A DNA stretch of 15,112 bases from a virus (Duplodnaviria > Heunggongvirae > Uroviricota > Caudoviricetes), in the IMG/VR virus record IMGVR_UViG_2541047905_000022; one strand, given 5' to 3'. The position numbers and the translations under genes were made by a program. This document shows positions 892 to 12,776 of the stretch, piece by piece (positions within the stretch are counted from its first letter, which is position 1; each line of letters starts with the position of its first letter). A model generated the notes under the pieces. It was given only the letters and a program-made list of their open reading frames with translations, had not been told where the DNA came from and searched no databases.

Positions 892-981
892 GGAGAGATG
901 CCGGAGCGGCTGAACGGACCGGTCTCGAAAACCGGAGTGGGGGCAACTCCACCGGGGGTTCAAATCCCCCTCTCTCCGCCA
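892..981 (+). tRNA. serU: tRNA-Ser (anticodon CGA), 90 nt including encoded CCA
   Basis: Acceptor stem GGAGAGA (892-898) pairs with TCTCTCC followed by G-CCA (979-981); anticodon stem CCGGT/ACCGG with 7-nt loop CTCGAAA, anticodon CGA at 926-928; long variable arm typical of class II tRNA-Ser; TTCAAATCC T-loop. Confidence 0.9.
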
Positions 982-2262: not shown

Positions 2263-2320
2263 AGCTATATCTCATAACCGCCGCTAACTATATACGGTTA
2301 GCGGCAATTAGGGTTGAACA

Positions 2321-4795
2321 TTAAAAATCAGCCTGACTCGGGATCAGTTTTTGCCAGATAGCTGAAACGTATTTTGCCTGGTAACGAGCGTCATCAAGTG
2401 CATTATGGCGCTCACCTTCGAATGGAATAGCCGTTCTGGCATCGAAGTCTATGGCTTTCCCCAGCTCAACGATTGTGCGTACATCGCGATCGTTGTAGTA
2501 ACGCCACGGGCAGGGGATCCCCTGCCGTTCGTATGAACGGCGCAAAATCGTGTTGTCGAAGTTGGCTCCATTTCCCCAGACCTGAACAAAAAATTCACCG
2601 GAGTTTTCGTCGATAAATTCCCGCAATTGTAACAGTGCATCATCTAACGGGATTTCATCGGTCATAATGGCAGATTGCGCTTCGCGTGATTGCTTAAGCC
2701 ACCATTTAATGGTGTCCCGATCAATGACCCCGCCAGCAGTTTCCAGATCGATAGTCTTACTAAATTCCGGTCCCATATCTCCGGTTTGCGGATCGAAAAA
2801 TATTGCACCTATTGAGATGATCGGGGCATCAGGATTTTTTCCCATGGTTTCAAGGTCGATCATTAGATGGTCACACGTCCTGCTGGTGGATGTGATTTCT
2901 TGATGACCGTTCACCTTAATTGAGTGATCTGCCGTCTCGCCAGTTTCATTATCGCTATCGTGATGCTGATTGCCGCCAGTGTTCTCCTTGTGTGGATGTT
3001 CAGCGCCTTCCATTTCCTCCGGATCATCTTCCTGAACTTCAACCTGATACTCTTCATCGAATGTTTCCTGGTATGTTGCGTCGCCCATCACCGCGCCACA
3101 ATCAGGGTAGTTGCCGCCGCCGGTCTGACCGCAGGCGGTGCAGACTTTTTCCACTTCCTGTTGCGCCACTGGTTCAGGATGTTTCGTTTCTGGCTCGTTT
3201 TGTAACGCATTTGGGCTGTTTTGTTCCGCTTTCTGGCCGTTCTGTTCCGTTTCTTGCTGGTTCTGATTCACTGAATCGCGGGTTTCAATCCCCTTCACCC
3301 ATTTCGGATCATTCGGGTCGCTAATCCCTGCAACAAATTCACCACGTGATACAGCAAGCAACTTATTGGCGTCAGGCTGGCTGATATTGGCTGCCTGCAT
3401 AATTTTGTTTACTTCGTCAGCGGTAACTTTTACCGGCTCTGGTTGTGCGATCGTGTCAGATGCACCAGTATTTTGTTGTGAACCTGAGTACGTGCCGTTT
3501 TTACGTGCGAAGTATTCCTCTTTTGTGATTTCCGTAGCTCCCAGGGCCAGTGCTTTTTCCAGACCAGAAAGTTTGTTTGCGCGACCGTATTTTTCGCCGT
3601 CCTTATCGGTGAAAAGGAAGTAGAACGGTCCCTCACGCTCTACAGATGGTTCGTCTTCCACTTCGCATTCGGTTTTTTCGTTGTCCGGCATTGCCGTTTC
3701 CACTGCATCAGTTTCTGGTACTGGTGACGGGAGAGTACCAGCTGTGCCCTGATTTGTTCCTTCGTCATCTTCAAACACGCCCTTGGTAGTCAGGTATTCA
3801 GTGATGTATTTGTTCAGTGCTACGGGATCTTTGTGAATGTCGATCGGACGCTCACGGACAAGGCCAAAAATAGTCTGACGGTCGTAGCGAACGGCATCGG
3901 GTTGTTTGCGCATTGATGCGGAAATGCGCTTCCAGTCTTCGCGATCTTTGTCGATAACTTCATTTTTTGCCCGGCGATGGATGCTGCCGTCAATGTTTCC
4001 GGTATCAATATCGCCAGGCCAGAGAGCGTAGGCCAGTTCTTCATCCAGCGTTTTCCATGTCTGCTTGTATTCGCGACAAATGGCGGCAGTGACTGGGTTG
4101 ATTTTTCCTGCTGAGTTTTCAGTGTGCTGTTGATTGACTCTGGCGCGGGCGAGATCAACAACAGACGTGTATTTTCCAGTCTCTTTGCGCTCTGCGTCCT
4201 GCCGTTTTTTCCAGTTACGTAATTCAGCCTGAATTTCTGGCCATTTGGCACCCGGATTACATTTGTGTTTAACCCATCCGATAGCGAACAGTTTGCGTTC
4301 CGGATACATAGCGTTAATTTCAGGCGTTTTCATCAGTGCTTCAACGATATGCCCGTCAAAGGTAGCAACGTCTTCCTGCAGTAATTCCTGCGCGTCAATC
4401 GCCATATCAACGGTGATGTTTTCACATGTACCGAACTTAACCAGGACCGCGTTCTGTACTTCAAGGGACAGCTTGTCAAAATTGACGTTCATCGGATCGG
4501 ATTCTGGTTCGACCGGAATAAAGGAAGCGGATTCCTCATCCCAGCGGTTTTCCTGCATATATTCAGCATCCCAGGAATCGAGGGCAGGGCGGGGTATGCC
4601 GGGTTTATCCTCGCAAACAAGAAATTTATAAGCGCAGTCCTGAGCAGCCGGATAATGTTCCAGGAATTGCCAGTGAAATTTTGCGCGGGCGCGACGTTCA
4701 TCACCGGCTTCAATGGCAGTGGCCACCGCAACAGCGCTATCTTCTTTTATGGCCTGTTCGTCAGGAATAGCAGCGCAAATAAAGATTTTACTCAT
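2321..4795 (-). CDS. Large phage protein (824 aa) with C-terminal DnaQ-like DEDDh 3'-5' exonuclease domain
   Basis: ORF 2321..4795; C-terminal ~180 aa carry exonuclease motifs MIDLETMG (Exo I), VWGNGANFDNTIL (Exo II), ERHNALDDARYQAKY (Exo III, DEDDh type); central acidic/Q-rich low-complexity linker and a Cys cluster CTACGQTGGGNYPDCG; GAGG Shine-Dalgarno 10 nt upstream of the ATG at 4795. Confidence 0.85.
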   Translation of the reverse strand: MSKIFICAAIPDEQAIKEDSAVAVATAIEAGDERRARAKFHWQFLEHYPAAQDCAYKFLVCEDKPGIPRPALDSWDAEYMQENRWDEESASFIPVEPESDPMNVNFDKLSLEVQNAVLVKFGTCENITVDMAIDAQELLQEDVATFDGHIVEALMKTPEINAMYPERKLFAIGWVKHKCNPGAKWPEIQAELRNWKKRQDAERKETGKYTSVVDLARARVNQQHTENSAGKINPVTAAICREYKQTWKTLDEELAYALWPGDIDTGNIDGSIHRRAKNEVIDKDREDWKRISASMRKQPDAVRYDRQTIFGLVRERPIDIHKDPVALNKYITEYLTTKGVFEDDEGTNQGTAGTLPSPVPETDAVETAMPDNEKTECEVEDEPSVEREGPFYFLFTDKDGEKYGRANKLSGLEKALALGATEITKEEYFARKNGTYSGSQQNTGASDTIAQPEPVKVTADEVNKIMQAANISQPDANKLLAVSRGEFVAGISDPNDPKWVKGIETRDSVNQNQQETEQNGQKAEQNSPNALQNEPETKHPEPVAQQEVEKVCTACGQTGGGNYPDCGAVMGDATYQETFDEEYQVEVQEDDPEEMEGAEHPHKENTGGNQHHDSDNETGETADHSIKVNGHQEITSTSRTCDHLMIDLETMGKNPDAPIISIGAIFFDPQTGDMGPEFSKTIDLETAGGVIDRDTIKWWLKQSREAQSAIMTDEIPLDDALLQLREFIDENSGEFFVQVWGNGANFDNTILRRSYERQGIPCPWRYYNDRDVRTIVELGKAIDFDARTAIPFEGERHNALDDARYQAKYVSAIWQKLIPSQADF

Positions 4796-4890
4796 TGTGT
4801 TTTAACCTCATTACAGATTTCAGGGTGAACGAATCCCTGCCATTGCTGGCATTTTTAATCCGTTGGTATGGCGTTAATATGGCTGGCGGG

Positions 4891-5079
4891 TTATCCAGCC
4901 GGTATTTCGTTATTCAGGTTCAGCGATACTTTTTTTAACGGGAGGCATTCACCGGGGATTTTTTGTTCGTCCCTTACCTGAATGCAGGATGACTTACTGT
5001 CATAAATTCCGGTAATCACATTTTGTGGCTCACCCGTTATAAGAAAAACGGTCATCACCAGTGCAAATGCTGAAGTCAC
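4891..5079 (-). CDS. ydfD: YdfD-like small membrane protein (Qin-type dicB operon), 62 aa
   Basis: ORF 4891..5079; hydrophobic N-terminus SAFALVMTVFLITG, KIPGE and EIPAG motifs as I recall for YdfD; start (GTG at 5079) overlaps the dicB stop, implying translational coupling; an alternative ATG start is at 5055. Confidence 0.6.
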   Translation of the reverse strand: MTSAFALVMTVFLITGEPQNVITGIYDSKSSCIQVRDEQKIPGECLPLKKVSLNLNNEIPAG

Positions 5080-5264
5080 TGCTGTTCTCCGATAATACCA
5101 AGTTCAAGAAGGGCAATTCTGGAAAGTATGGAATTATCATTGAGAAGATAAGGTTCATATTTTCTCATCTTAATGGCATCTTCCGTAAACTCCCGGTTAC
5201 TGAGCAGAACACCAATATCAAAACAACCTTCAGACGTATTAACGTTTGGTAGTGACGTTTCCAT
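5076..5264 (-). CDS. dicB: Cell division inhibitor DicB homolog, 62 aa
   Basis: ORF 5076..5264; N-terminal half SLPNVNTSEGCFDIGV..FTEDAI closely matches my recollection of E. coli DicB (LPNVNTSEGCFEIGV...FTEDAI); GAGGA Shine-Dalgarno 7 nt upstream of the ATG; lies downstream of DicF in the same leftward operon. Confidence 0.85.
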   Translation of the reverse strand: METSLPNVNTSEGCFDIGVLLSNREFTEDAIKMRKYEPYLLNDNSILSRIALLELGIIGEQQ

Positions 5265-5274
5265 TATCGCGTCC

Positions 5275-5832
5275 TCAACAATGAATTTTTAGCAATTGCT
5301 CCACAGTCATATTTTTAATTGCGCTCCGGTTTACAAGAGTCCATCCTTGTTTCTCCAGATAAAACCGGAAGGTATCCAGGGTGCAGACCATTGCGCCGTC
5401 AGGAACGGTTTCAGTGAATTTGATATTGCCGTGTTCGTCGAGACGGATAACCAGGGTGCGTCCGTCCCCGTGAATCATTTTGTCGGGAGACGGGGCGTTA
5501 TTCTGGCGCAGTTCTGCTTCCATGCGGTCGAACTCAGCAATGTATGCCTCTTTAAATGCAGCGGCTTTTTTGCCAGTGAAGCCCATCACCAGGAAAACGA
5601 AGCCGTTTTTGGTGATTTGGTACATTGGGAGTTTGCGCCCGGTTGAGTCGGTGTATTCGCTTGACACAAAATTGTGCTCAGTGAATTTTGCTGAACAGTC
5701 CAGATTGCGAATTTTATCCAACACTCGTTCGTGGCGTTTGCCAAAGAACTCGGCGATCGCAACAGACGTAGTGACAGCGCGACCATTTTCGATGGTTACG
5801 TCAGGGTGAGAAAGGGTAAGGATAGTAGCCAT
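5275..5832 (-). CDS. rha: Phage regulatory protein Rha family, 185 aa
   Basis: ORF 5275..5889 trimmed to the internal ATG at 5832, which has a GGAGG Shine-Dalgarno 8 nt upstream; N-terminal domain MATILTLSHPDVTIENGRAVTTSVAIAEFFGKRHERVLDKIRNL... is the characteristic Rha fold sequence. Confidence 0.85.
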   Translation of the reverse strand: MATILTLSHPDVTIENGRAVTTSVAIAEFFGKRHERVLDKIRNLDCSAKFTEHNFVSSEYTDSTGRKLPMYQITKNGFVFLVMGFTGKKAAAFKEAYIAEFDRMEAELRQNNAPSPDKMIHGDGRTLVIRLDEHGNIKFTETVPDGAMVCTLDTFRFYLEKQGWTLVNRSAIKNMTVEQLLKIHC

Positions 5833-6002
5833 GATGGCAGCCTCCGCGATGAATTTGATTAACTCACCACCGAGGTTTTCCACGACCATAAGGGTGGTGA
5901 GACGTACAGGGGTGGAAAATACCGGTCATCACGGAACCCGGCCAGCCTTGCGGCTGCCCTGCACGCCCCACCATAATGCGAATGTGGCTGTGCTTAACGC
6001 AT

Positions 6003-6025
6003 AAAAAAACCGCCTGAGCGCGGTT
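6003..6025 (-). terminator. Rho-independent terminator (minus strand) between DicF and rha
   Basis: On the minus strand: stem ACCGC - loop GCTCAG - GCGGT followed by a run of 7 U (plus-strand A7 at 6003-6009). Confidence 0.5.
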
Positions 6026-6318
6026 ATGCGCCGTGAATGATTTCGGGTTTCCACGCCCGGCACCCGTTTTATGAGGTGCAGGTGCACTATAATTCCACCC
6101 GTTCTGGTTTTCAATAGCTACATTCAACATTTTCTCTACCTTTCATCACCGAAGTGAACTTTGTTGATGCGGTGCCTGGTGCCTCCAGGTGACGTTAACC
6201 AGTTAACAATTAACGTCGGATACAGAGCATTCCCGTTACGCCCGTAAAAGACCGCTTGTTTTAACTGTTCCGCGTGCGCTGAGCCGCATTCACCGCATCA
6301 CAAAATTCACTTTAAAAA

Positions 6319-6371
6319 GGGCGGCAGAGCAGTCACGGAGTAGAACTGATACCGCCAAAAGTCACCAGAAA
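6319..6371 (-). ncRNA. dicF: DicF small regulatory RNA (ftsZ-targeting antisense sRNA of dicB-type prophage operons)
   Basis: Minus-strand sequence TTTCTGGTGACTTTTGGCGGTATCAGTTCTACTCCGTGACTGCTCTGCCGCCC followed by TTTTT differs at only 2 of 53 positions from the E. coli K-12 DicF sequence as I recall it; located upstream of dicB as expected. Confidence 0.85.
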
Positions 6372-6709
6372 ATTGATAACAGAGGGCGTTGCAGCGGGGT
6401 TGTCACTTAAGCGTATGGTCAACCTGACAACCCGGTGTCCTCAACGGGGAAGGAATAACCCCGTCATACTTACCGCCGCGCCATTTCGCGGAGTGTCACA
6501 ACCGGAAGCGCACGGTCGACGAAAATTTAACGACAGGCTATCTATGAACCAGCTACCTCGCCGTGCGCTTTCGCGTTATGGTCTGACTTTTCATGGAAAT
6601 ATCCTTTCAGTAAACTGTCAGTGCCGGATTCTTATCCGTGTCCGGCGCACGACCACACGCTGTCACGAGAGGTCTCCATTCTCAACCAGTAACCTCAATG
6701 GAGGATAAA

Positions 6710-6904
6710 ATGTCAGAGCAGGAGTTAAAACTTGGTGCATGTTATTGTGTTCTCAAGGAGCTGGTACACATGCTTCCATCTACTCAGTATCAACAGTTAG
6801 TTGGCAATTTAAATCAGCGAATCGAAGCTATGTTAAAATCTGATGGTTTTAATAACGTAGAAACGCTGATGCTAAAAAGATATCTTGATGGATTAATCAG
6901 ATAA
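6710..6904 (+). CDS. Hypothetical small protein, 64 aa, encoded antisense to the leftward dicB-type operon
   Basis: ATG at 6710 with a GGAGG Shine-Dalgarno 5 nt upstream (6700-6704); ORF MSEQELKLGACYCVLKELVHMLPSTQYQQLVGNLNQRIEAMLKSDGFNNVETLMLKRYLDGLIR; AT-rich codon usage; its 3' end overlaps the convergent 116-aa gene by 12 nt. No recognised family. Confidence 0.4.
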   Translation: MSEQELKLGACYCVLKELVHMLPSTQYQQLVGNLNQRIEAMLKSDGFNNVETLMLKRYLDGLIR

Positions 6905-7243
6905 CATTTTTTTACGGCGTTCATATTCGTTAATATTTATGAAGCCTGTTGCCAGAAGCAGTTCGTTAATTTCATGGTTGTTTGGCTGTTTCTGGCTCTT
7001 TGAACTGGGATCTTCCACTTCTTTTTCTGCAAATTGTTTTGCTGTATCCTCTGTGCCATGGATATTTAAAGCTGTATCTGAAAACAGCCCAGTAAACGCA
7101 TCGCGCACATTACGAGCCATATTATCAGTGTCTTTTTTTGTTACCGATTCCAATTCAAGTTCGTTCAGACGATGACGAAGTGTGTGTGCTGCAATCTCCT
7201 GGATTGAAGGAGGTAAATCTTTAAATTCCATCGTCAACCTCAT
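6893..7243 (-). CDS. YdfB/YdfC-like uncharacterized protein (dicB-type operon), 116 aa (112 aa if started at ATG 7231)
   Basis: ORF 6893..7243; start overlaps the stop of the upstream small gene (coupling); an internal ATG at 7231 has a GAGG Shine-Dalgarno. Sequence EFKDLPPSIQEIAAHTLRHRLNELE resembles what I recall of Qin YdfB. Confidence 0.65.
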   Translation of the reverse strand: MRLTMEFKDLPPSIQEIAAHTLRHRLNELELESVTKKDTDNMARNVRDAFTGLFSDTALNIHGTEDTAKQFAEKEVEDPSSKSQKQPNNHEINELLLATGFININEYERRKKMLSD

Positions 7244-7395
7244 CAGTCGGAGTTTCTTGCTAACCAGCGACGCGCGCCAGCTTCGGTTTTAAACGTTTTG
7301 CTTTTGGTATACGTCATGGCGGTGAATGTGCCGTCCTGGTTGGGGAACACACCACATACCAGAGATTCGCTGTTGCCAAGATCGATAGTATCCAT
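7243..7395 (-). CDS. YdfA-like small protein, 50 aa
   Basis: ATG at 7395 preceded by GAGG (5-nt spacing); product MDTIDLGNSESLVCGVFPNQDGTFTAMTYTKSKTFKTEAGARRWLARNSD. The ORF-track 85-aa version requires a TTG start at 7500 that sits inside the predicted leftward promoter/operator, so I prefer the 50-aa form. Confidence 0.6.
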   Translation of the reverse strand: MDTIDLGNSESLVCGVFPNQDGTFTAMTYTKSKTFKTEAGARRWLARNSD

Positions 7396-7463
7396 GCTGA
7401 CCTCATTACCCCTTAACGCCGGGTAGCGGAACTGTTTGCTGAGAACACCGTGCGGTGTCTTGA

Positions 7464-7584
7464 TGGGTGGTAATTTAGTTTTCTCATGAATGTTGGTCAA
7501 GCATTTTTAATGAGAAAACTCAATATTTAATGCAAAATAAAGCCAATACATTGAAATGTAAGGCTTTAAAATTTGTGAAGGGGG
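7464..7584 (-). promoter_or_regulatory. Leftward early promoter/operator region (PL-like) downstream of the repressor gene
   Basis: Minus-strand -35 TTGACC (7499..7494), 17-nt spacer, -10 TAAATT (7476..7471); operator-like motif TGAGAAAACTCAA at 7511-7523 and an inverted near-copy (CATGAGAAAACTA on the minus strand) at 7476-7488 lying in the spacer. Confidence 0.45.
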
Positions 7585-7992
7585 TTACTGATGTTTGTTA
7601 CGTTTGCGAGCTTCTAGTAGCTCGGTGAATAGGCGATTAAAATTCTCAACGCGGGCACGGAGTTCGCTGATTTGTGCTTGCTGCTCTGATTTTGGAAGTG
7701 CGCGATACAATCGCAACATCTCCAACTCATCTTCCGATAAGTCTAAGGCGCTGTTGAGTGCTACTGGTGGATCTGGTGTTTTATCCTCGTCACCAAACAG
7801 TATCCAAGTTGGTGAACATTGCAATACCTCAGCCAGGCGATGCAAATTTTGCCCGCGCGGGGCTGTATGGTCGCTTTCCCATAGTGAAATTGATGAGCCA
7901 GATACGCCAGCGGCTTTGCTTAAATCGTTTTGACTTAAACCAACCTGTTTGCGTCTTTCTCTAATTCGTTGACCTAAAGTTTTCTCGTTCAT
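7585..7992 (-). CDS. dicA: Prophage repressor, DicA-like HTH XRE-family protein, 135 aa
   Basis: ORF 7585..7992; N-terminal HTH LGQRIRERRKQVGLSQNDLSKAAGVSGSSISLWE; the segment VLQCSPTWILFGDEDK and the C-terminal RARVENFN..LFTELLEARKR match my recollection of E. coli DicA (also 135 aa); divergent from a Cro-like gene. Confidence 0.9.
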   Translation of the reverse strand: MNEKTLGQRIRERRKQVGLSQNDLSKAAGVSGSSISLWESDHTAPRGQNLHRLAEVLQCSPTWILFGDEDKTPDPPVALNSALDLSEDELEMLRLYRALPKSEQQAQISELRARVENFNRLFTELLEARKRNKHQ

Positions 7993-8069
7993 ATTTAGAT
8001 ATCTTAATAACCCTTGACTTGAGATTCCTTGAATGATTACTATTGAGAAAACTCAACTTTGGAGGGGTG
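7993..8069. promoter_or_regulatory. Divergent immunity-region promoter/operator (OR-like) between dicA-like and dicC-like genes
   Basis: Rightward -35 TTGACT (8014-8019), 18-nt spacer, -10 TACTAT (8038-8043); operator-like palindrome TTGAGAAAACTCAA (8043-8056) at the predicted start site; 8-bp palindrome AGATATCT at 7997-8004; GGAGG Shine-Dalgarno at 8061-8065. Confidence 0.55.
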
Positions 8070-8297
8070 ATGTTTAAATCAGACGTAATTAATTTTTATG
8101 GGACGAAAGCCAAAGTAGCGAAAGCTGCTGGTGTTGATCCATCTGCTGTTTCTCAATGGGGGGAACTGGTTCCTGAAGGTCGCGCGATGCGCCTGCAAGA
8201 GGCATCCGTCGGGGAACTTCAGTACGACCCCAAAGTTTATGACGAATATCGTAAGGCAAAGCGGGCGGGGCGGTTGAACAATGAAAATCACCCCTGA
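8070..8297 (+). CDS. dicC: DicC-like Cro-type small regulator, 75 aa
   Basis: ATG at 8070 after GGAGG; product MFKSDVINFYGTKAKVAKAAGVDPSAVSQWGELVPEGRAMRLQEASVGELQYDPKVYDEYRK... resembles my recollection of DicC (76 aa); divergent from the repressor. The ORF-track start at 8043 is a TTG inside the promoter. Confidence 0.8.
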   Translation: MFKSDVINFYGTKAKVAKAAGVDPSAVSQWGELVPEGRAMRLQEASVGELQYDPKVYDEYRKAKRAGRLNNENHP

Positions 8298-8832
8298 ACA
8301 GGTTTGTGAGGCTCTGGATGCCTGGGTATGTCGACCAGGAATGACACAGGAGCAAGCGACGATATTAATCACGGAAGCATTCTGGGCTCTGAAAGAACGC
8401 CCGAACATCGATGTTCAACGCGTCACGTTTAATGATGGCGAGGTTGATCAACGGGCGCTGGGCGTTAACCGGGTGAAGATATTCGAACGCTGGAAAGCTA
8501 TCGACACCAGGGATAAGCGGAAAAAATTCACGGCGCTGATTCCGGCAATTATGGAGGCTATCCGAATTAGTGATTTCAGGTTGTATCGTGAGATCAGTGA
8601 TGGAAAAAGCATTACGTACATGATCGCCGGATTAAACAAAGAATATGGCGATGTGGTGGAGTCCGGGCTGCTTTTTGCGGATCCAGCTGTTGTGGAACGT
8701 GAGACTGACGAGCTTATAGAAAAAGCTATTGCTTTCAAGCATGCGTATCGTCAGCAATATCAATATTACTTTGCAGATAAACAAATGTCTGCCAGGGGTT
8801 TGTATGAGTATCGATGCACTACGATGGGCTAA
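8281..8832 (+). CDS. YdaT-family protein (CII-like / toxin YdaT domain), 183 aa
   Basis: ORF 8281..8832; segment RVKIFERWKAIDTRDKRKKFTALIPAIMEAI parallels the Rac YdaT motif (KIFRW..KD......ALLPAIEKS); overlaps the dicC-like 3' end by 17 nt, as in ydaS-ydaT pairs. Confidence 0.7.
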   Translation: MKITPEQVCEALDAWVCRPGMTQEQATILITEAFWALKERPNIDVQRVTFNDGEVDQRALGVNRVKIFERWKAIDTRDKRKKFTALIPAIMEAIRISDFRLYREISDGKSITYMIAGLNKEYGDVVESGLLFADPAVVERETDELIEKAIAFKHAYRQQYQYYFADKQMSARGLYEYRCTTMG

Positions 8833-9844
8833 AAAGGTGAAAACCGGCAGTTCATCCAGTAAGTCTGTATTGACCTGGCTTGCTGATATGTGCGGTGCCG
8901 ATTTGTGTGCATACCCGTCTGTATCTGCACTGGCAGAAGTAACGGAACTAAACAAAAAGACTGTGCAGGACAGCTTACGACACCTGATGGAGATTGGGTT
9001 AATTGTTGATACCGGTGAGAGAAAAGGCAGAACAAAGCAAATTGTGGTGTACCGACTTATCGGTGTAGAAGAAAGTGTTGCCGAGCCTGAATACACCCAA
9101 AAACGGGAGTCTTTAAAGGTGGGTAAAATTGGTGCTGTTAATAAAAACAGTACCGAAAATGGTTATGTTTCAGCACAAAACAGACCCAAAAACGGAACTC
9201 TTAGCTGCATGGAAAATAACCAAAGACACCCAAATTTTCCATCAAAGACACCCAAAAACGGATCACGGAACCCAAAGGAACCCAAAGATCTAAACCCCAC
9301 ACATAACGCACGCGAGAGTGCTCCGACCAGTGAGCAGGAAGTTTTGTCGTTACAGGCAGCACCCCTTGTATTCCTGGATGGCCTGAGCGAACCCATCGGA
9401 AAATTTCCGATGACCGATAGCTGGTATCCGTCACGGGATTTTCGACGACGGGCTGCGTTGTGGGGGATGGCTTTGCCGGAGACAGAATTTACACCTGCTG
9501 AACTTGCCGCCTTCCGGGACTACTGGGCAGCGGAGGGGAAAGTGTTTACTCAGATTCAGTGGGAGCAGAAATTCGCCCGTCACGTAAATCACGTCAGGGC
9601 GCAGGTTAAACCAGTCAGCAAGGGGGTAAACCATGCAGCAGCACCAGGTGGCACCGCATCACGGGCAGTTCAGGAAATTCGGGCAGCACGTGAGCAGTGG
9701 GAACGTGAAAACGGATTTATCAGCGACGGAAACGGTCTGGAAGCTGTGGGAACTCATGGGGGAGGTTTATTCGAACCGCTGGACCCAGAAGAACGGGGCC
9801 GCACCTTCGAAGCTCTGGATTGCACAGATTGGCGCGATGACTGA
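8804..9844 (+). CDS. Phage replication initiation protein (lambda O-like replisome organizer; N-terminal HTH, central linker, C-terminal DnaT-like region), 346 aa
   Basis: ORF 8729..9844 trimmed to ATG 8804 (AGGGG Shine-Dalgarno upstream); N-terminus MSIDALRWAKKVKTGSSSSKSVLTWLADMCGADLCAYPSVSALAEVTELNKKTVQDSLRHLMEIGLI is typical of phage replication-protein N-terminal domains; iteron-like repeats lie inside the gene; the P-like gene follows. Confidence 0.8.
   Translation: MSIDALRWAKKVKTGSSSSKSVLTWLADMCGADLCAYPSVSALAEVTELNKKTVQDSLRHLMEIGLIVDTGERKGRTKQIVVYRLIGVEESVAEPEYTQKRESLKVGKIGAVNKNSTENGYVSAQNRPKNGTLSCMENNQRHPNFPSKTPKNGSRNPKEPKDLNPTHNARESAPTSEQEVLSLQAAPLVFLDGLSEPIGKFPMTDSWYPSRDFRRRAALWGMALPETEFTPAELAAFRDYWAAEGKVFTQIQWEQKFARHVNHVRAQVKPVSKGVNHAAAPGGTASRAVQEIRAAREQWERENGFISDGNGLEAVGTHGGGLFEPLDPEERGRTFEALDCTDWRDD
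9182..9290. repeat. Iteron-like direct repeats (candidate phage origin of replication inside the O-like gene)
   Basis: Five copies of (A/G)ACCCAAA-containing repeats: AGACCCAAAAACGGA (9182-9196), AGACACCCAAA (9225-9235), AGACACCCAAAAACGGA (9247-9263), GAACCCAAAGGA (9268-9279), GAACCCAAAGATC (9278-9290); they fall in the linker between the two domains of the replication protein, as in lambda ori. Confidence 0.5.
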
Positions 9845-10298
9845 GCAGCAAATCCGACAGGTCTGCCGCCAGTGCATGGACCGCTGCCGGGCGGGTGAAA
9901 CATGGCCTCCGGACCTGGCTGAGTTTGTGGCGCTGATTTCAGAAAGCGGGGCCAATCCATTTGGCCTGACGGTGGATGCTGTGATGGAGGAGTACCGCCG
10001 CTGGCGTGATGAGTCCTGGCGATATGACGGAAGCGACAAATATCCGTGGCCTCAGCCTGTGCTGTACCACATCTGCCTCGAAATGCGTACCAGAGGGATT
10101 GAGCGCCAGATGACGCAGGGTGAGTTAAAACGACTTGCGGAACGGCAACTGACGAAATGGGCAAAGCATGTTGGTAACGGGATGAGTGTTCCGCCAGTGC
10201 GACGACAACTGGAAGGGGCGAAACACCCGCAAGGGCCAACGCCAATTGAACGGCTGAAACAGGAATACGAACGCCGGAAGGCAGCTGGTTTTATTTGA
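9633..10298 (+). CDS. Lambda P-like replication protein (helicase loader), 221 aa
   Basis: ORF 9633..10298 with a strong AGGGGG Shine-Dalgarno 6 nt upstream; region YPWPQPVLYHICLEMRTRGIERQMTQGELKRLAERQLTKWAKHV aligns with lambda P (SYPWKSNAHYWLVTNLYQNMRANALTDAELRRKAADELVHMTARI). The start is uncertain (alternatives at 9756 and 9837); as drawn it overlaps the O-like gene by 212 nt in another frame. Confidence 0.7.
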   Translation: MQQHQVAPHHGQFRKFGQHVSSGNVKTDLSATETVWKLWELMGEVYSNRWTQKNGAAPSKLWIAQIGAMTEQQIRQVCRQCMDRCRAGETWPPDLAEFVALISESGANPFGLTVDAVMEEYRRWRDESWRYDGSDKYPWPQPVLYHICLEMRTRGIERQMTQGELKRLAERQLTKWAKHVGNGMSVPPVRRQLEGAKHPQGPTPIERLKQEYERRKAAGFI

Positions 10299-10331
10299 AT
10301 CTGAGAAACGATTTTGTCGGAGGAAATTTTA

Positions 10332-11102
10332 ATGGAAACCGTATTTGACGCACTGAAAGCAATGGGAAAAGCCACATCGGTAGAACTGGCCGCGCGACTT
10401 GATATCAGTCGTGAAGAGGTTCTCAACGAGCTGTGGGAACTCAAAAGAAATGGCGTCGTTGATAAAACTGGTCACACCTGGTTTCTGGCTGGCGAAGGTG
10501 AATCCCGGGTAACCGAAGAGCGGCCAGTAAAATCTGAAGCACAGGATATGCTGACCGGGGAGGTCGAACAAAAAGTTACCGCAGACATGATGATTGAGTT
10601 TATCGGTCAGGATGGGGCTAAAACGTGTGAGGAACTGGCGGGTAAGTTCGGTGTCAGTACTCGCAAGGTTGCTTCCACGCTGGCGGTGGTAACCGCAACG
10701 GGGCGGCTGGCACGCGTTAATCAGAACGGTAAATTTCGTTACTGCATGCCGGGCGATAATTTACCAGCAGAGCCGAAAGCCGCGCTGGTAACGGAAAGTG
10801 ATGGTAAGGCCTTTCCTCAGCCAGCAGGTGCTGCGTTACCAGTCCGGGAAGCCGCAACACAGGAAGAAATTAAAACAGAAACTGTGGCGGACATTGTGCA
10901 GCCGTTGCCATCGTTTACCGAAACGCAAGCAGATGAGCTGATTTTTCCGTCCCTTCGCAGGGCAAACCTGGCGCTGCGCAGGGCGAAAAGTGATGTTCAG
11001 AAGTGGGAGCGAGTCTGCGCCGCGCTGCGGGAGCTGAACAAGCACCGGGATATTGTTCGACAGATTACTGATTCTTCCCGCCGTGTTGTATCGGAAAAGT
11101 GA
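10332..11102 (+). CDS. DUF1627-like phage protein with N-terminal winged-helix, 256 aa
   Basis: ORF 10314..11102 trimmed to ATG 10332 (GGAGGA Shine-Dalgarno 7 nt upstream); N-terminus [43 protein letters not shown] is winged-helix-like; position after O/P is typical for this prophage family. Confidence 0.7.
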
Positions 11103-11117
11103 TTGCCGGAGGCGCTT

Positions 11118-11543
11118 ATGGCAAAAGTATTTACACAAGAAGAGCGGGAAAAAATTAAAGGGCAGGTTGTTGAACTTGTACGTCTGAGCGGTCGCGAGAC
11201 GTTGCGGCAACTGGAAGCCAAGACAGGTGCGACAAGATATCTGATGAGTGTTCTCGCCAGAGAGCTGGTTGCCAGTGGCGATGTATACAACTCTGGTTAC
11301 GGGTTATTCCCGTCTGAACAGGCGCGTAAGGACTGGCAAAATGCTCGCAAAAAACTCTCAAGGGCAAAGGTGAAGAAACCTGCAGTGGTTGATCCGGACC
11401 TTATCTGGTCGTTACCAGACGGCGAAATACGCCGCTACGACAGGCGCCTGAATATAATCTGTCGCGAGTGCCGGAAGAGCGAAGCTATGCAGCGTGTACT
11501 GGCATTTTATCAAGGAAATGTTAGGTATTTTAGACGTTACTAG
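11118..11543 (+). CDS. Hypothetical phage protein, 141 aa
   Basis: ORF 11103..11543 trimmed to ATG 11118 (GGAGG Shine-Dalgarno 5 nt upstream); starts 16 nt after the previous gene's stop; basic C-terminus with a CRECR motif; no family recognised. Confidence 0.65.
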   Translation: MAKVFTQEEREKIKGQVVELVRLSGRETLRQLEAKTGATRYLMSVLARELVASGDVYNSGYGLFPSEQARKDWQNARKKLSRAKVKKPAVVDPDLIWSLPDGEIRRYDRRLNIICRECRKSEAMQRVLAFYQGNVRYFRRY

Positions 11544-12444: not shown

Positions 12445-12499
12445 GGCTGCGGGTGCTTGAGGCTATCTGTCTCAGGCATGAACACTGAAAGGCAGATAG

Positions 12500-12572
12500 A
12501 GAAAAGCCCCAGTTAACATTTCGCGTCCTGCAAGACGCTTAACATTAATCTGAGGCCCAATCTATGTCTCAC
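12500..12572 (-). ncRNA. Candidate Sok-like antisense RNA of the hok locus
   Basis: Minus-strand -35 TTGCCT (12607..12602), 17-nt spacer, -10 TAACCT (12584..12579); the predicted antisense transcript would cover the GAGG Shine-Dalgarno (12552-12555) and in-frame upstream ATG (12564) of the hok leader. The 3' end is not defined; a GCGTC/GACGC hairpin lies at about 12522-12537. Confidence 0.3.
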
Positions 12573-12620
12573 AAATGTAGGTTAGCCTCTTACGTGCCGA
12601 AAGGCAAGGGGAAGCAGGCT

Positions 12621-12776
12621 ATGAAGCAGCAAAAGGCGATGTTAATCGCCCTGATCGTCATCTGTTTAACCGTCATTGTGACGGCACTGGTAACGAGGAA
12701 AGACCTCTGCGAGGTACGAATCCGAACCGGCCAGACGGAGGTCGCTGTCTTCACAGCTTACGAACCTGAGGAGTAA
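12621..12776 (+). CDS. hok: Hok/Gef family type I toxin (HokD/RelF-like), 51 aa
   Basis: ATG at 12621; product MKQQKAMLIALIVICLTVIVTALVTRKDLCEVRIRTGQTEVAVFTAYEPEE, which I recognise as Hok-family (essentially HokD/RelF); single transmembrane helix plus conserved C-terminal tail. The ORF track extends it in-frame to 12564 (70 aa), a mok-like upstream start. Confidence 0.85.
   Translation: MKQQKAMLIALIVICLTVIVTALVTRKDLCEVRIRTGQTEVAVFTAYEPEE

Follow-up and report, generated by a model that had tools for sequence, protein, structure and literature searches.

The dicF-dicB region of the prophage

The DNA analyzed here, referred to as the window, is a stretch of 15,112 nucleotides from a virus of the class Caudoviricetes (IMG/VR record IMGVR_UViG_2541047905_000022). 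The following elements define the locus:

7585..7992, minus strand: DicA-family repressor of the prophage (NCBIfam NF007257, 238 bits, full length), genomic context
6319..6370, minus strand: DicF small RNA (Rfam RF00039, 71.5 bits, full length)
5275..5832, minus strand: rha, 185 aa, with an N-terminal Phage_pRha domain and an AnrP-related C-terminal domain (Pfam and NCBIfam)
5076..5264, minus strand: dicB (Pfam DicB PF05358, 125 bits, positions 1-62 of 62; also NCBIfam)

With a DicA-family repressor, a DicF RNA and DicB in a single orientation, the locus is a dicBF operon of the Qin type. DicF differs from its K-12 counterpart at two positions only (G11U and U28C). The order of the elements, namely the DicA-family repressor, DUF1391 (ydfA-like), DicF, a structured spacer, dicB and a small gene, is shared with K-12 Qin (ydfABC-dicF-dicB-ydfD), whereas the small gene following dicB is ydfD in K-12 and encodes a DUF1482 protein in the window; the ydfB/ydfC region also differs. 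A preceding sequence-only reading of the window had placed DicF and dicB about 1 kb apart, unlike in K-12. The sequence comparison bears this out, with a gap of 1054 nt in the window versus 174 nt in K-12 Qin, which is devoid of rha. Pfam, NCBIfam and the ORF coordinates likewise agree with its description of an intact Rha-family gene: A distance of 10 nt separates the TGA codon of rha (5277-5275) from the dicB ATG downstream, and the codon overlaps the Shine-Dalgarno sequence of dicB (GAGGA).

Extent and origin of the insertion

Alignment to Qin, which had been proposed for delimiting the inserted DNA, yielded two segments:

6155..6318, minus strand: resident DicF-dicB spacer, shared with K-12 Qin (92.4% identity), outside the insertion
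5290..6154, minus strand: entire inserted cassette as judged by comparison with K-12 Qin (break points from blastn)

There is an insertion relative to Qin, but it comprises only the block 6154-5290, i.e., 865 bp, and is smaller than the entire gap between DicF and dicB. The earlier claim of about 490 bp of inserted structured non-coding DNA holds from position 6154 onward, while roughly a third of this DNA (6318-6155) is resident spacer of the K-12 type. The spacer is highly structured (MFE of -62.8 kcal/mol, z = -5.2) and includes the palindromes noticed before. Its positions 6160-6307 show a resemblance, and only that, to Rfam STnc100 (RF02076; with 35.6 bits it falls short of the gathering score of 47, E = 1e-5).

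The cassette is bordered by an imperfect 9-bp direct repeat (CAAAGTTCA / AAAAATTCA), of which K-12 has the single hybrid copy CAAAATTCA. The insertion point precedes the dicB ATG by 25 nt, the left junction of the cassette is the same in every DicF-linked locus, and in megablast searches genomes without rha begin to match at window position 5289. Such repeats at the block edges are also compatible with an ancestral rha-bearing form, from which the K-12 Qin form would have derived by a deletion between the short repeats without any insertion; in decaying prophages, to which Qin belongs, deletions between microhomologies occur frequently. We regard this course of events as very improbable with respect to the end of rha. 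Next to dicB the protein terminates with ...EQLLKIHC-stop, and the last codons (KIHC) together with the stop codon come from the Qin-type dicB leader. Elsewhere, the same C-terminal domain ends with ...EQLLSIK-stop or SLK-stop followed by unrelated DNA, and ...KIHC-stop is found only beside dicB. Being built from the dicB leader, this terminus bears the mark of a cassette that was joined to a leader already in place. Furthermore, phage genomes also harbor the cassette at several further sites, and more than 90% of the dicB loci lack rha. The extra kilobase between DicF and dicB is, in all likelihood, a self-contained phage regulatory cassette of a known type which was inserted into the prophage operon.

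IsrK-type and C4-type RNAs upstream of rha

The sequence-only reading had treated the non-coding part of the insertion as anonymous structured DNA. This description has to be replaced, as the part contains matches to two RNA families and constitutes the regulatory apparatus of rha itself:

6086..6114, minus strand: predicted sigma-70-like promoter, TTGAAA-17-TATAGT (promoter scan)
6003..6079, minus strand: IsrK / P4 seqA-type leader RNA (Rfam isrK RF01394, 67.7 bits versus a gathering score of 50, model positions 1-77 of 77)
5890..5978, minus strand: C4 / P4 CI-type antisense RNA (Rfam RF01695, 78.6 bits versus a gathering score of 45, model positions 1-87 of 87)
5874..5883, minus strand: target site a2, GTGGAAAA, complementary to element a' of the C4-type RNA (8-bp duplex, -9.0 kcal/mol), co-varying across variants
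5842..5852, minus strand: target site b2, TCATCGCGGAG, complementary to the C4 loop b' (11-bp duplex, -16.5 kcal/mol)

IsrK corresponds to seqA and C4 to CI, and both are carried by lambdoid prophages (PMC3632133). Membership of the first RNA in the isrK/seqA family is based on its score, on the predicted promoter ahead of it and on the intrinsic terminator at its end (6025-6003, terminator scan); the latter is the second terminator between DicF and dicB which had been noticed from the sequence. The promoter is the sole promoter-like site found between positions 5000 and 6800, and its -10 hexamer ends 7 nt ahead of position 1 of the isrK match. It represents a consensus match only, of which shuffled sequence yields 1.6 on average. 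Its elements TTGA.. and TA...T are kept in the related loci L003 and L004 as well as in Gifsy-1, for which the PisrK promoter has been shown experimentally (PMC4825925).

The IsrK-type RNA consists of two 5' hairpins, the sites a1 (GTGGAAA, 6054-6048) and b1 (TCATTCACGG, 6040-6031) and the terminator. The C4-type RNA folds into a 17-bp closing stem with two inner hairpins and exposes two recognition elements, namely b' in the loop (GTTCCGTGATGA, 5937-5926) and a' in the tail (TTTTCCAC, 5919-5912). Helices 1-3 of the IsrK-type RNA are 100% paired with compensatory changes present, and helices 4-6 of the C4-type RNA are 99-100% paired, with both sides of inner hairpin 1 changed in five of five pairs. 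The closing stem is uninformative because variation occurs on one of its sides only. The Rfam model c4-a1b1 (RF03163) stayed below its threshold in the window (25.7 versus 46.7 bits), while Gifsy-1 passes it with 48.1 bits. The region is not assigned to this model, and the complementarity of a1 and b1 is demonstrated directly instead.

Complementarity and co-variation of the target sites

The site b2 overlaps the Shine-Dalgarno sequence of rha (GGAGG, 5845-5841), which precedes ATG 5832. This ATG, rather than position 5889, is the likely start of the gene. Upstream, pairing energies of -12.9 kcal/mol (b'-b1) and -8.2 kcal/mol (a'-a1) were obtained, the b1 pairing requiring a bulge for the specificity of the window. 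The sites a2 and b2 lie downstream and a1 and b1 upstream of the antisense RNA, with one site covering the ribosome-binding site, as in RNA immunity of the P1/P7/P4 type.

Co-variation was analyzed across 121 viral loci, which comprise 31 (a',b') specificities. In these, the target sites occupy fixed positions (a1 at about -78, b1 at about -63, a2 at about +7 and b2 at about +37), and cognate combinations scored higher than non-cognate ones at each of them, with means of 9.6 versus 6.2 for b2, 8.5 versus 5.5 for b1, 7.1 versus 4.8 for a2 and 6.9 versus 5.0 for a1. The corresponding mean energies amounted to -13.3 versus -7.4 and -8.9 versus -5.3 kcal/mol. Combined with non-cognate loops, b2 of the window reached -8.3 kcal/mol, compared to -16.5 kcal/mol with its own. 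In a formal pair count over 45 variants 93.1% of the cells were paired and 27 pairs had changed on both sides, including nine of the 11 pairs between b' and b2; none of 500 shuffles was as high, and in slid controls 39-47% were paired. For a'-a2 (helix 8) the formal count gave 68% paired, weakened by a 3-nt alignment gap, and the alignment-free comparison of cognate and non-cognate combinations was relied on here.

The long Ash-Rha reading frame

The RNA elements are overlaid by reading frames, whose state in the window is affected by a single base:

5919, minus strand: private one-base insertion in a' (T4 instead of T3), the single indel relative to the related locus L001
5864..6130, minus strand: frameshift-truncated 5' part (88 aa) of a 284-aa Ash-Rha ORF (Pfam Phage_ASH), without codon periodicity
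5864..5974, minus strand: short ORF, 36 aa in the window, with a conserved ATG at the 5' end of the C4-type RNA; positional homolog of Gifsy-1 orf45

In relatives of the window a single ORF of 284 aa extends from ATG 6130, which sits upstream of the internal promoter, and is annotated as a CDS by PGAP in L001. A continuous frame through the RNA elements as in P4 eta is present in L001, L003 and L004 and broken in the window by the T at 5919. In the window, the short ORF from ATG 5974 ends 31 nt upstream of the rha ATG; in the T3 relatives it continues in-frame into rha. The extra T is the sole homopolymer indel within 8.9 kb aligned to L001. The exact 91-nt T4 version was present in none of 5426 E. 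coli genomes, the best matches differing by that one base. Since no other E. coli genome shares this frameshift, which affects both a' and the long ORF, the copy in the window may be impaired, or the additional base may be a sequencing error.

The existence of the long ORF raises the question whether positions 6130-5275 are one protein-coding gene, with incidental RNA matches and a frameshifted pseudogene in the window. Besides the PGAP annotation, hundreds of database entries of 282-284 aa combine Phage_ASH with Phage_pRha, and the Pfam Ash profile spans the entire stretch. Starting at ATG 5974, 59 of 77 variants can be read through in-frame into the gene that follows, which hints at a coding role of the region, and a 3-nt indel in L004 preserves the frame. 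In P4 the gene eta is a genuine protein gene with cI inside, an internal constitutive promoter and nested translation from an upstream start, as summarized in PMC10111431. Nevertheless, a purely protein-coding origin of the stretch is unlikely according to the following observations. An excess of variation at third codon positions is absent from isrK, the linker, C4 and the leader, whereas it is clear in rha downstream of 5832 (1.39 versus 1.03 and 0.92). Compensatory changes in the stems scramble the encoded residues (e.g., QPQGW versus PTSVG), the interior of the ORF holds the predicted promoter and the intrinsic terminator, and the frame from ATG 5974 stops in 15 of the 77 variants. Moreover, the 5' extent of the ORF varies from 6130 in the window to 357 nt further upstream in L003 and to a start inside isrK in L004, and certain gene callers already begin at the 185-aa or 230-aa position. 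The region 5' of rha appears to be under RNA rather than protein constraint. What survives of the coding interpretation at most is a dual use as in P4, which is already part of the RNA-based explanation. The Pfam Ash family, named after a P4 protein (PMC8951638), essentially consists of translated IsrK/C4 RNAs.

The Rha-domain protein

The product of rha exceeds the cut-offs of Phage_pRha (PF09669; 107.3 versus 29.9 bits) and TIGR02681 (108 versus 45.95 bits). Its residues 100-172 match phrog_2379 (E = 2.5e-8), the PHROG family to which AnrP also belongs, and its PHROG neighbors are annotated as transcriptional regulators or anti-repressors. A direct BLASTP comparison with AnrP reveals little similarity (E = 0.007, 23% identity over 75 aa). 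The protein is not an ortholog of AnrP, which carries an N-terminal ORF6N domain in place of Phage_pRha; the C-terminal domains alone are related. A sequence search against solved structures gave no match for the Rha protein. Database homologs are 87-97% identical to it and would yield a shallow alignment.

Most likely, the Rha-domain protein acts as an antirepressor-like regulator, because its C-terminal domain family is shared with AnrP and a short repressor of the DicA type is resident in the same prophage. DicA-type repressors are a class under antirepressor control (PMC10448788), and the DicA-family repressor at 7585..7992 is a candidate target. Alternatively, as the sequence-only reading had hinted, Rha might be a phage-exclusion or host-range factor located beside DicB since both shield the lysogen from other phages. 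The name Rha derives from a phage-growth phenotype, which counts for such a function. DicB has been reported to protect against some phages (cited in PMC10448788). The idea that Rha blocks phage growth nevertheless found no support here, and an exclusion factor is extremely improbable: All of the regulatory anatomy speaks for an anti-immunity or antirepressor module, as do the studied relatives P1 Ant, N15 Ant and Gifsy-1 AnrP (PMC4825925, PMC3632133) and the annotations of the PHROG neighbors.

Comparison with known systems

The cassette follows the design of P1 c4-ant, P4 seqA-cI-eta and Gifsy-1 isrK-orf45-anrP. The IsrK-orf45-AnrP mechanism has been described for the Salmonella prophage Gifsy-1 (Hershko-Shalev et al., 2016; PMC4825925), including translation of orf45 (STnc1160). 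Both loci share, in this order, the promoter, a 77-nt IsrK with its terminator, the C4-type RNA, the a2/b2 leader and a regulator gene of the Bro network. In both, orf45 or its counterpart begins at the ATG conserved at the 5' end of C4, and the cargo proteins have C-terminal domains of one PHROG, that of AnrP. The N-terminal domains differ (ORF6N in AnrP, Rha in the window), and the orf45 stop overlaps the anrP ATG, while the equivalent ORF is fused in-frame to rha in most Rha-type cassettes. In addition, the Gifsy-1 locus follows antQ in the late-regulatory region, whereas the cassette of the window resides in the early-left dicBF operon.

In P4 (PLE-seqA-cI-seqC with nested eta and kil), the RNA elements likewise lie within an ORF of the Bro network which starts upstream of an internal promoter (PMC10111431). 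There, the system provides the primary immunity over replication genes; in the window only one Rha-domain gene serves as cargo, the long ORF is interrupted, and the cassette resides in a lambdoid prophage with a DicA/DicC-type switch of its own. In the immI operon of P1/P7 (c4-icd-ant) and the anti-immunity locus of N15, a processed antisense RNA is directed against its own transcript through the short pairs a'/a2 and b'/b2, with the copies a1/b1 upstream, which corresponds to the layout of the window. The b2 site covers a ribosome-binding site in this design as well, and specificity variants differ exactly at these sites (Citron and Schuster, 1990; Ravin, 1999, as cited in PMC3632133). Differences are the cargo (P1 Ant versus a Rha-domain protein), the lack of an icd-like separate ORF with a known function of its own in the window and its sub-threshold c4-a1b1 score.

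Proposed mechanism

Taken together, we are fairly confident that the DicF-dicB spacer of a Qin-type operon received an autonomous 865-bp IsrK/C4 "RNA immunity" cassette. Its homology, its architecture, the co-varying complementarity and the insertion boundaries follow from the sequence comparisons, while processing, repression, termination, antirepressor activity and an effect on dicB are inferred. Transcription from the cassette promoter would give a 77-nt IsrK/seqA-type RNA which ends at the intrinsic terminator and offers a1 and b1 as decoy sites. The C4/CI-type RNA would presumably be excised from read-through transcripts in the manner of P1 and P4. In the resting state it would pair with a2 and b2, thereby blocking ribosome entry at rha and, again as in P1 and P4, provoking premature termination, so that Rha would be scant and little transcription from the cassette promoter would reach dicB. 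Two ways of opening the switch are conceivable. A surplus of the short IsrK-type RNA could titrate C4 or remodel the leader, as shown for Gifsy-1. Alternatively, ribosomes could arrive from upstream via ATG 5974 or, in relatives, via ATG 6130 on dicBp read-through transcripts, similar to P4 eta. The Rha-domain protein produced would then most likely have an antirepressor-like action. Because rha ends 10 nt before dicB and a terminator is absent between them, dicB would lie downstream of the RNA switch. The effect of IsrK in Gifsy-1 was published as activation and the role of the C4-like RNA was left open; the direction of control assumed above thus relies on an extrapolation from P1 and P4.

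A more far-reaching interpretation, which we consider doubtful, combines a DicA-independent promoter for dicB, antirepression of the resident DicA-type repressor by Rha and an a'/b' "address code". If it were true, dicB, normally silent under DicA, would have a second promoter gated only by the IsrK/C4 switch, and the opened switch would set off a positive feedback firing DicF, Rha and DicB together. At least 31 freely re-assorting a'/b' specificities would determine which prophages sharing a host can silence or trigger one another's antirepressors.

Occurrence of the cassette

Most dicB-type operons do not carry rha at this position. The rha-dicB junction was detected in 259 of the 3812 genomes matching the dicB leader, and at least 80% of a 1.5-kb query was covered in 313 of 5426 genomes. 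With about 5-7% of E. coli genomes carrying the cassette at dicB, the arrangement is that of a minority, yet recurrent and already annotated. E. coli 042 and NCTC86 are among the strains with the cassette. The earlier term "unusual mosaic" is appropriate in so far as a minority is concerned, but the arrangement is not rare, since a "Rha family phage regulatory protein" is annotated beside dicB in hundreds of genomes. The mosaic at dicB is genuine yet fairly ordinary.

DicF and DicB are studied as prophage-encoded factors that influence cell division, metabolism and phage resistance as well as virulence in EHEC. To our knowledge, how they are regulated is understood for the K-12 Qin arrangement only. 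As a presumably RNA-gated antirepressor-type cassette precedes dicB in this fraction of E. coli, results from K-12 may not be transferable to these genomes. Beyond this locus, annotation systematically hides lambdoid IsrK/C4 RNAs within a long "Rha family" ORF, and the cassettes exist in many co-varying specificities. The results do not establish a new principle; they serve annotation and the consideration of cross-talk between prophages.

The initial view of a lone Rha regulator embedded in the operon has to be given up, since rha forms the cargo of an autonomous cassette that is widespread and located at other positions in many lambdoid and Stx phages. Among viral loci with this type of C4, a gene with the Rha N-terminal domain lies downstream in 100 of 118, while DicF or dicB is nearby in only 12 of 98. 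A scan of one genome per species (596 Gb) with the 16-mer TTATGGTGGGGCGTGC gave 120 loci, mostly chance matches; the 18 with the full C4 motif belong nearly all to Enterobacterales, which provides a rough picture of the host range. The isrK and C4 pair in canonical order is also found in Stx phages and in the type locus of Gifsy-1. In Stx2a_1447 the cassette is located after cII.

Extent and direction of the insertion

DicF, isrK, C4, rha, dicB and the repressor are all encoded on the minus strand of the window. The resident operon parts and the Rha-domain ORF were assigned with Rfam (DicF) or with Pfam and NCBIfam (proteins):

7992-7585, minus strand: DicA-family repressor, full-length
6370-6319, minus strand: DicF (71.5 bits)
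ending at 5275, minus strand: Rha-domain ORF
5264-5076, minus strand: DicB
after dicB, minus strand: DUF1482 gene

Relative to K-12, DicF carries two substitutions, G11U and U28C. As the sequence-only reading had described, the rha stop codon (TGA, 5277-5275) overlaps the GAGGA of dicB, 10 nt short of the ATG of that gene.

For the determination of the extent of the insertion, the window was compared with K-12 Qin by blastn. Window positions 6651-6155 (92% match) and 5289-4029 (79% match) have K-12 counterparts, and none was found in Qin for the 865 bp from 6154 to 5290. The proposed insertion between DicF and dicB is real, but its extent had been misjudged: the palindrome-rich stretch 6318-6155, which had been counted as inserted, is resident spacer matching K-12, since only 6154-5290 is without a counterpart. 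The block is bounded by the two copies of an imperfect repeat, CAAAGTTCA and AAAAATTCA, where K-12 carries a single CAAAATTCA. In other genomic surroundings this Rha C-terminal domain terminates in ...EQLLSIK* or ...SLK*, with unrelated DNA beyond the stop; beside dicB it ends in ...EQLLKIHC*, the last codons and the stop being supplied by the Qin-type dicB leader. The left junction is identical across all DicF-linked loci, including those that differ in internal RNA specificity. Judged from these sequence comparisons, the event is an insertion rather than a deletion in K-12.

The resident spacer 6318-6155 folds strongly (z = -5.2) and contains a below-threshold Rfam match to STnc100 (6160-6307, minus strand); a processing site is one possibility for it. 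The spacer element also occurs in L002 (~4185-4339) and L245 (2501-2634), and copies ~83% identical lie between tRNA genes of ~95-kb phage-plasmids.

RNA elements of the inserted cassette

The inserted block belongs to a known type of RNA-controlled anti-immunity cassette, which annotation pipelines already call as a gene. Within the stretch earlier regarded as non-coding, Rfam detected two RNAs above the gathering score, and complementary target sites were located around them:

6079-6003, minus strand: isrK (67.7 bits)
6054-6048, minus strand: a1, inside the IsrK-type RNA, complementary to a'
6040-6031, minus strand: b1, inside the IsrK-type RNA, complementary to b'
5978-5890, minus strand: C4 antisense RNA (78.6 bits)
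5937-5926, minus strand: b', C4 hairpin-2 loop, GTTCCGTGATGA
5919-5912, minus strand: a', C4 single-stranded tail, TTTTCCAC
5883-5876, minus strand: a2, complementary to a', GTGGAAAA (duplex -9.0 kcal/mol)
5852-5842, minus strand: b2, complementary to b', TCATCGCGGAG (duplex -16.5 kcal/mol)

Site b2 covers GGAGG (5845-5841), the Shine-Dalgarno sequence of rha. The second terminator noted previously is real (6025-6003) and belongs to the IsrK-type RNA. The sole sigma-70-like site within 5000-6800 is TTGAAA-17-TATAGT (6114-6086), with 7 nt between the end of the -10 hexamer and isrK position 1; its hexamers are kept in relatives and in Gifsy-1, for which a promoter at the equivalent place was experimentally demonstrated (PMC4825925). 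The single aspect of biological interest is the position of dicB, which is now placed immediately behind the putative RNA switch and promoter of the cassette.

In its layout the cassette corresponds to a1b1-c4-a2b2 of P1 and P7 and to seqA-cI-seqC of P4. In the literature IsrK is equated with seqA and C4 with CI, and such pairs are described for lambdoid prophages (PMC3632133, PMC4825925). Similarity to many Stx-converting and other lambdoid phages begins exactly at base 1 of the isrK match and spans C4 into the Rha N-domain with ~72-81% identity; two of these phages contain both isrK and C4 according to Rfam. The published orf45/STnc1160 region of Gifsy-1 (L246, 34131-34214) gives a full Rfam C4 match (69 bits), and the orf45 start is the ATG kept at the C4 5' end across all cassettes examined.

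Co-variation of the C4 RNA and its targets

When viral contigs were scanned for the conserved C4 5' stem, 121 loci were obtained, with 31 distinct (a',b') combinations drawn from 12 variants of a' and 26 of b'. All four target sites keep fixed positions and change jointly with the RNA.

Complementarity scores of the target sites
Site, cognate, non-cognate
b2, 9.6, 6.2
b1, 8.5, 5.5
a2, 7.1, 4.8
a1, 6.9, 5.0

Mean duplex energies were -13.3 (cognate) vs -7.4 kcal/mol (non-cognate) for b2 and -8.9 vs -5.3 kcal/mol for a2. In a formal pair count over 45 variants, 93.1% of the cells were paired (slid controls, 39-47%), and both-sided changes occurred in 27 pairs, a number reached by 0 of 500 shuffles; they include 9 of 11 pairs of b'-b2 and 5 of 5 pairs of C4 inner hairpin 1.

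Among viral loci L005-L124, a' and b' assort independently. Tandem isrK-C4 modules about 1 kb apart were found in L085 (2411 and 3416) and L242 (2793 and 3798), each with the same b' loop in both modules and different a' tails. In dicB-linked cassettes the Rha C-domain is 98-100% identical, while identity falls to 78-81% in the RNA specificity region and in the Rha N-domain, a pattern which points to recombination within the cassette.

RNA or coding constraint

In the closest genome, L001, the PGAP annotation of the equivalent region is a single 284-aa "Rha family" CDS whose start corresponds to window position 6130, and database entries mostly have 282-284 aa. A translation of isrK, C4 and target leader (window 6130-5833; L001 7371-7700; L003, a further relative, 3490-3790) is matched along its whole length by the Pfam Ash family (PF10554). 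Among ~96 distinct variants, no third-position excess was detected in isrK, linker, C4 or leader, and rha gave a clear codon-position signal (1.39 vs 1.03 and 0.92). Because of this lack of third-position excess, an ORF start upstream that is not conserved among relatives, and a promoter and terminator located within the long ORF, the constraint on the isrK-C4-leader stretch appears to be on RNA rather than on coding. As the aligned stretch is without a codon-position signature, the Ash family may be, in large part, a profile of conserved RNA genes and not of a protein domain.

However, in 59 of 77 variants the reading frame that begins at the conserved ATG (5974) stays open into the cargo gene, and the equivalent ATG is the start experimentally used for Gifsy-1 orf45 (PMC4825925). 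P4 is a precedent for RNA and coding together: as summarised in PMC10111431, cI lies within eta, which is translatable only from an upstream promoter and whose translation suppresses termination. By this analogy, the long ORF could be a P4-like overlay on the RNA elements, and not a plain protein domain.

In the window, one extra T at 5919 (minus strand, within a'; T4 instead of T3) interrupts the 284-aa Ash-Rha ORF of the relatives, leaving a piece of 88 aa and, separately, rha (185 aa), so that the orf45-like ORF stops 31 nt before rha. Among 5426 complete E. coli genomes none has the T4 version, the best matches differing by exactly that base, and the extra T is the sole homopolymer indel over 8.9 kb aligned to L001. 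With it, the a'-a2 duplex is one pair longer and slightly better (-8.3 to -9.0 kcal/mol). The extra T may be a true mutation or an artefact of sequencing.

The cargo protein

The N-domain of the Rha protein is Phage_pRha, and residues 100-172 match phrog_2379 ("anti-repressor", E = 2.5e-8). AnrP of Gifsy-1, with an ORF6N N-domain, belongs to phrog_2379 over its full length; direct BLASTP of both C-terminal regions gave a weak match (E = 0.007). Since AnrP leads to antQ expression and prophage induction (PMC4825925) and DicA-type repressors are short, non-cleavable and antirepressor-controlled (PMC10448788), we infer by analogy an antirepressor-like role for the Rha-domain protein.

Distribution of the cassette

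At least 80% of a 1.5-kb query was covered in 313 of 5426 E. coli genomes, and this C4 type is present in 170 genomes, including strains 042 and NCTC86. The rha-dicB junction occurs in 259 of the 3812 genomes matching the dicB leader, all remaining matches starting at window position 5289. Most dicB operons hence lack rha here, and the "unusual mosaic" proposed earlier holds as a minority arrangement, but one of a cassette kind common in lambdoid phages. A Rha N-domain gene follows C4 in 100 of 118 viral loci, and DicF or dicB is close by in only 12 of 98. The cassette lies after cII in Stx2a_1447 and after antQ in Gifsy-1. Because of this spread across loci and these other positions, we regard the cassette as a mobile module, with the dicB leader as one of several landing sites.

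Further features of the prophage

The best E. coli match to the window extends from 2312 to 11229 only; the window ends are therefore from a different mosaic. A tRNA-Ser gene (anticodon cga; 892-981, plus strand) adjoins a 341-aa ORF (2059-1034, minus strand), and the two may represent attachment site and integrase. A strong match to the sok antitoxin (12451-12626, plus strand; Rfam, 120.5 bits) was found, which implies that this prophage carries a toxin-antitoxin locus of the hok/sok type. An 88-aa ORF (6638-6904, plus strand), located between DicF and the ydfC-like region and running antisense to the dicBF operon, matches phrog_4987 (E = 9e-49; function unknown); in L001 it carries the annotation "hypothetical".
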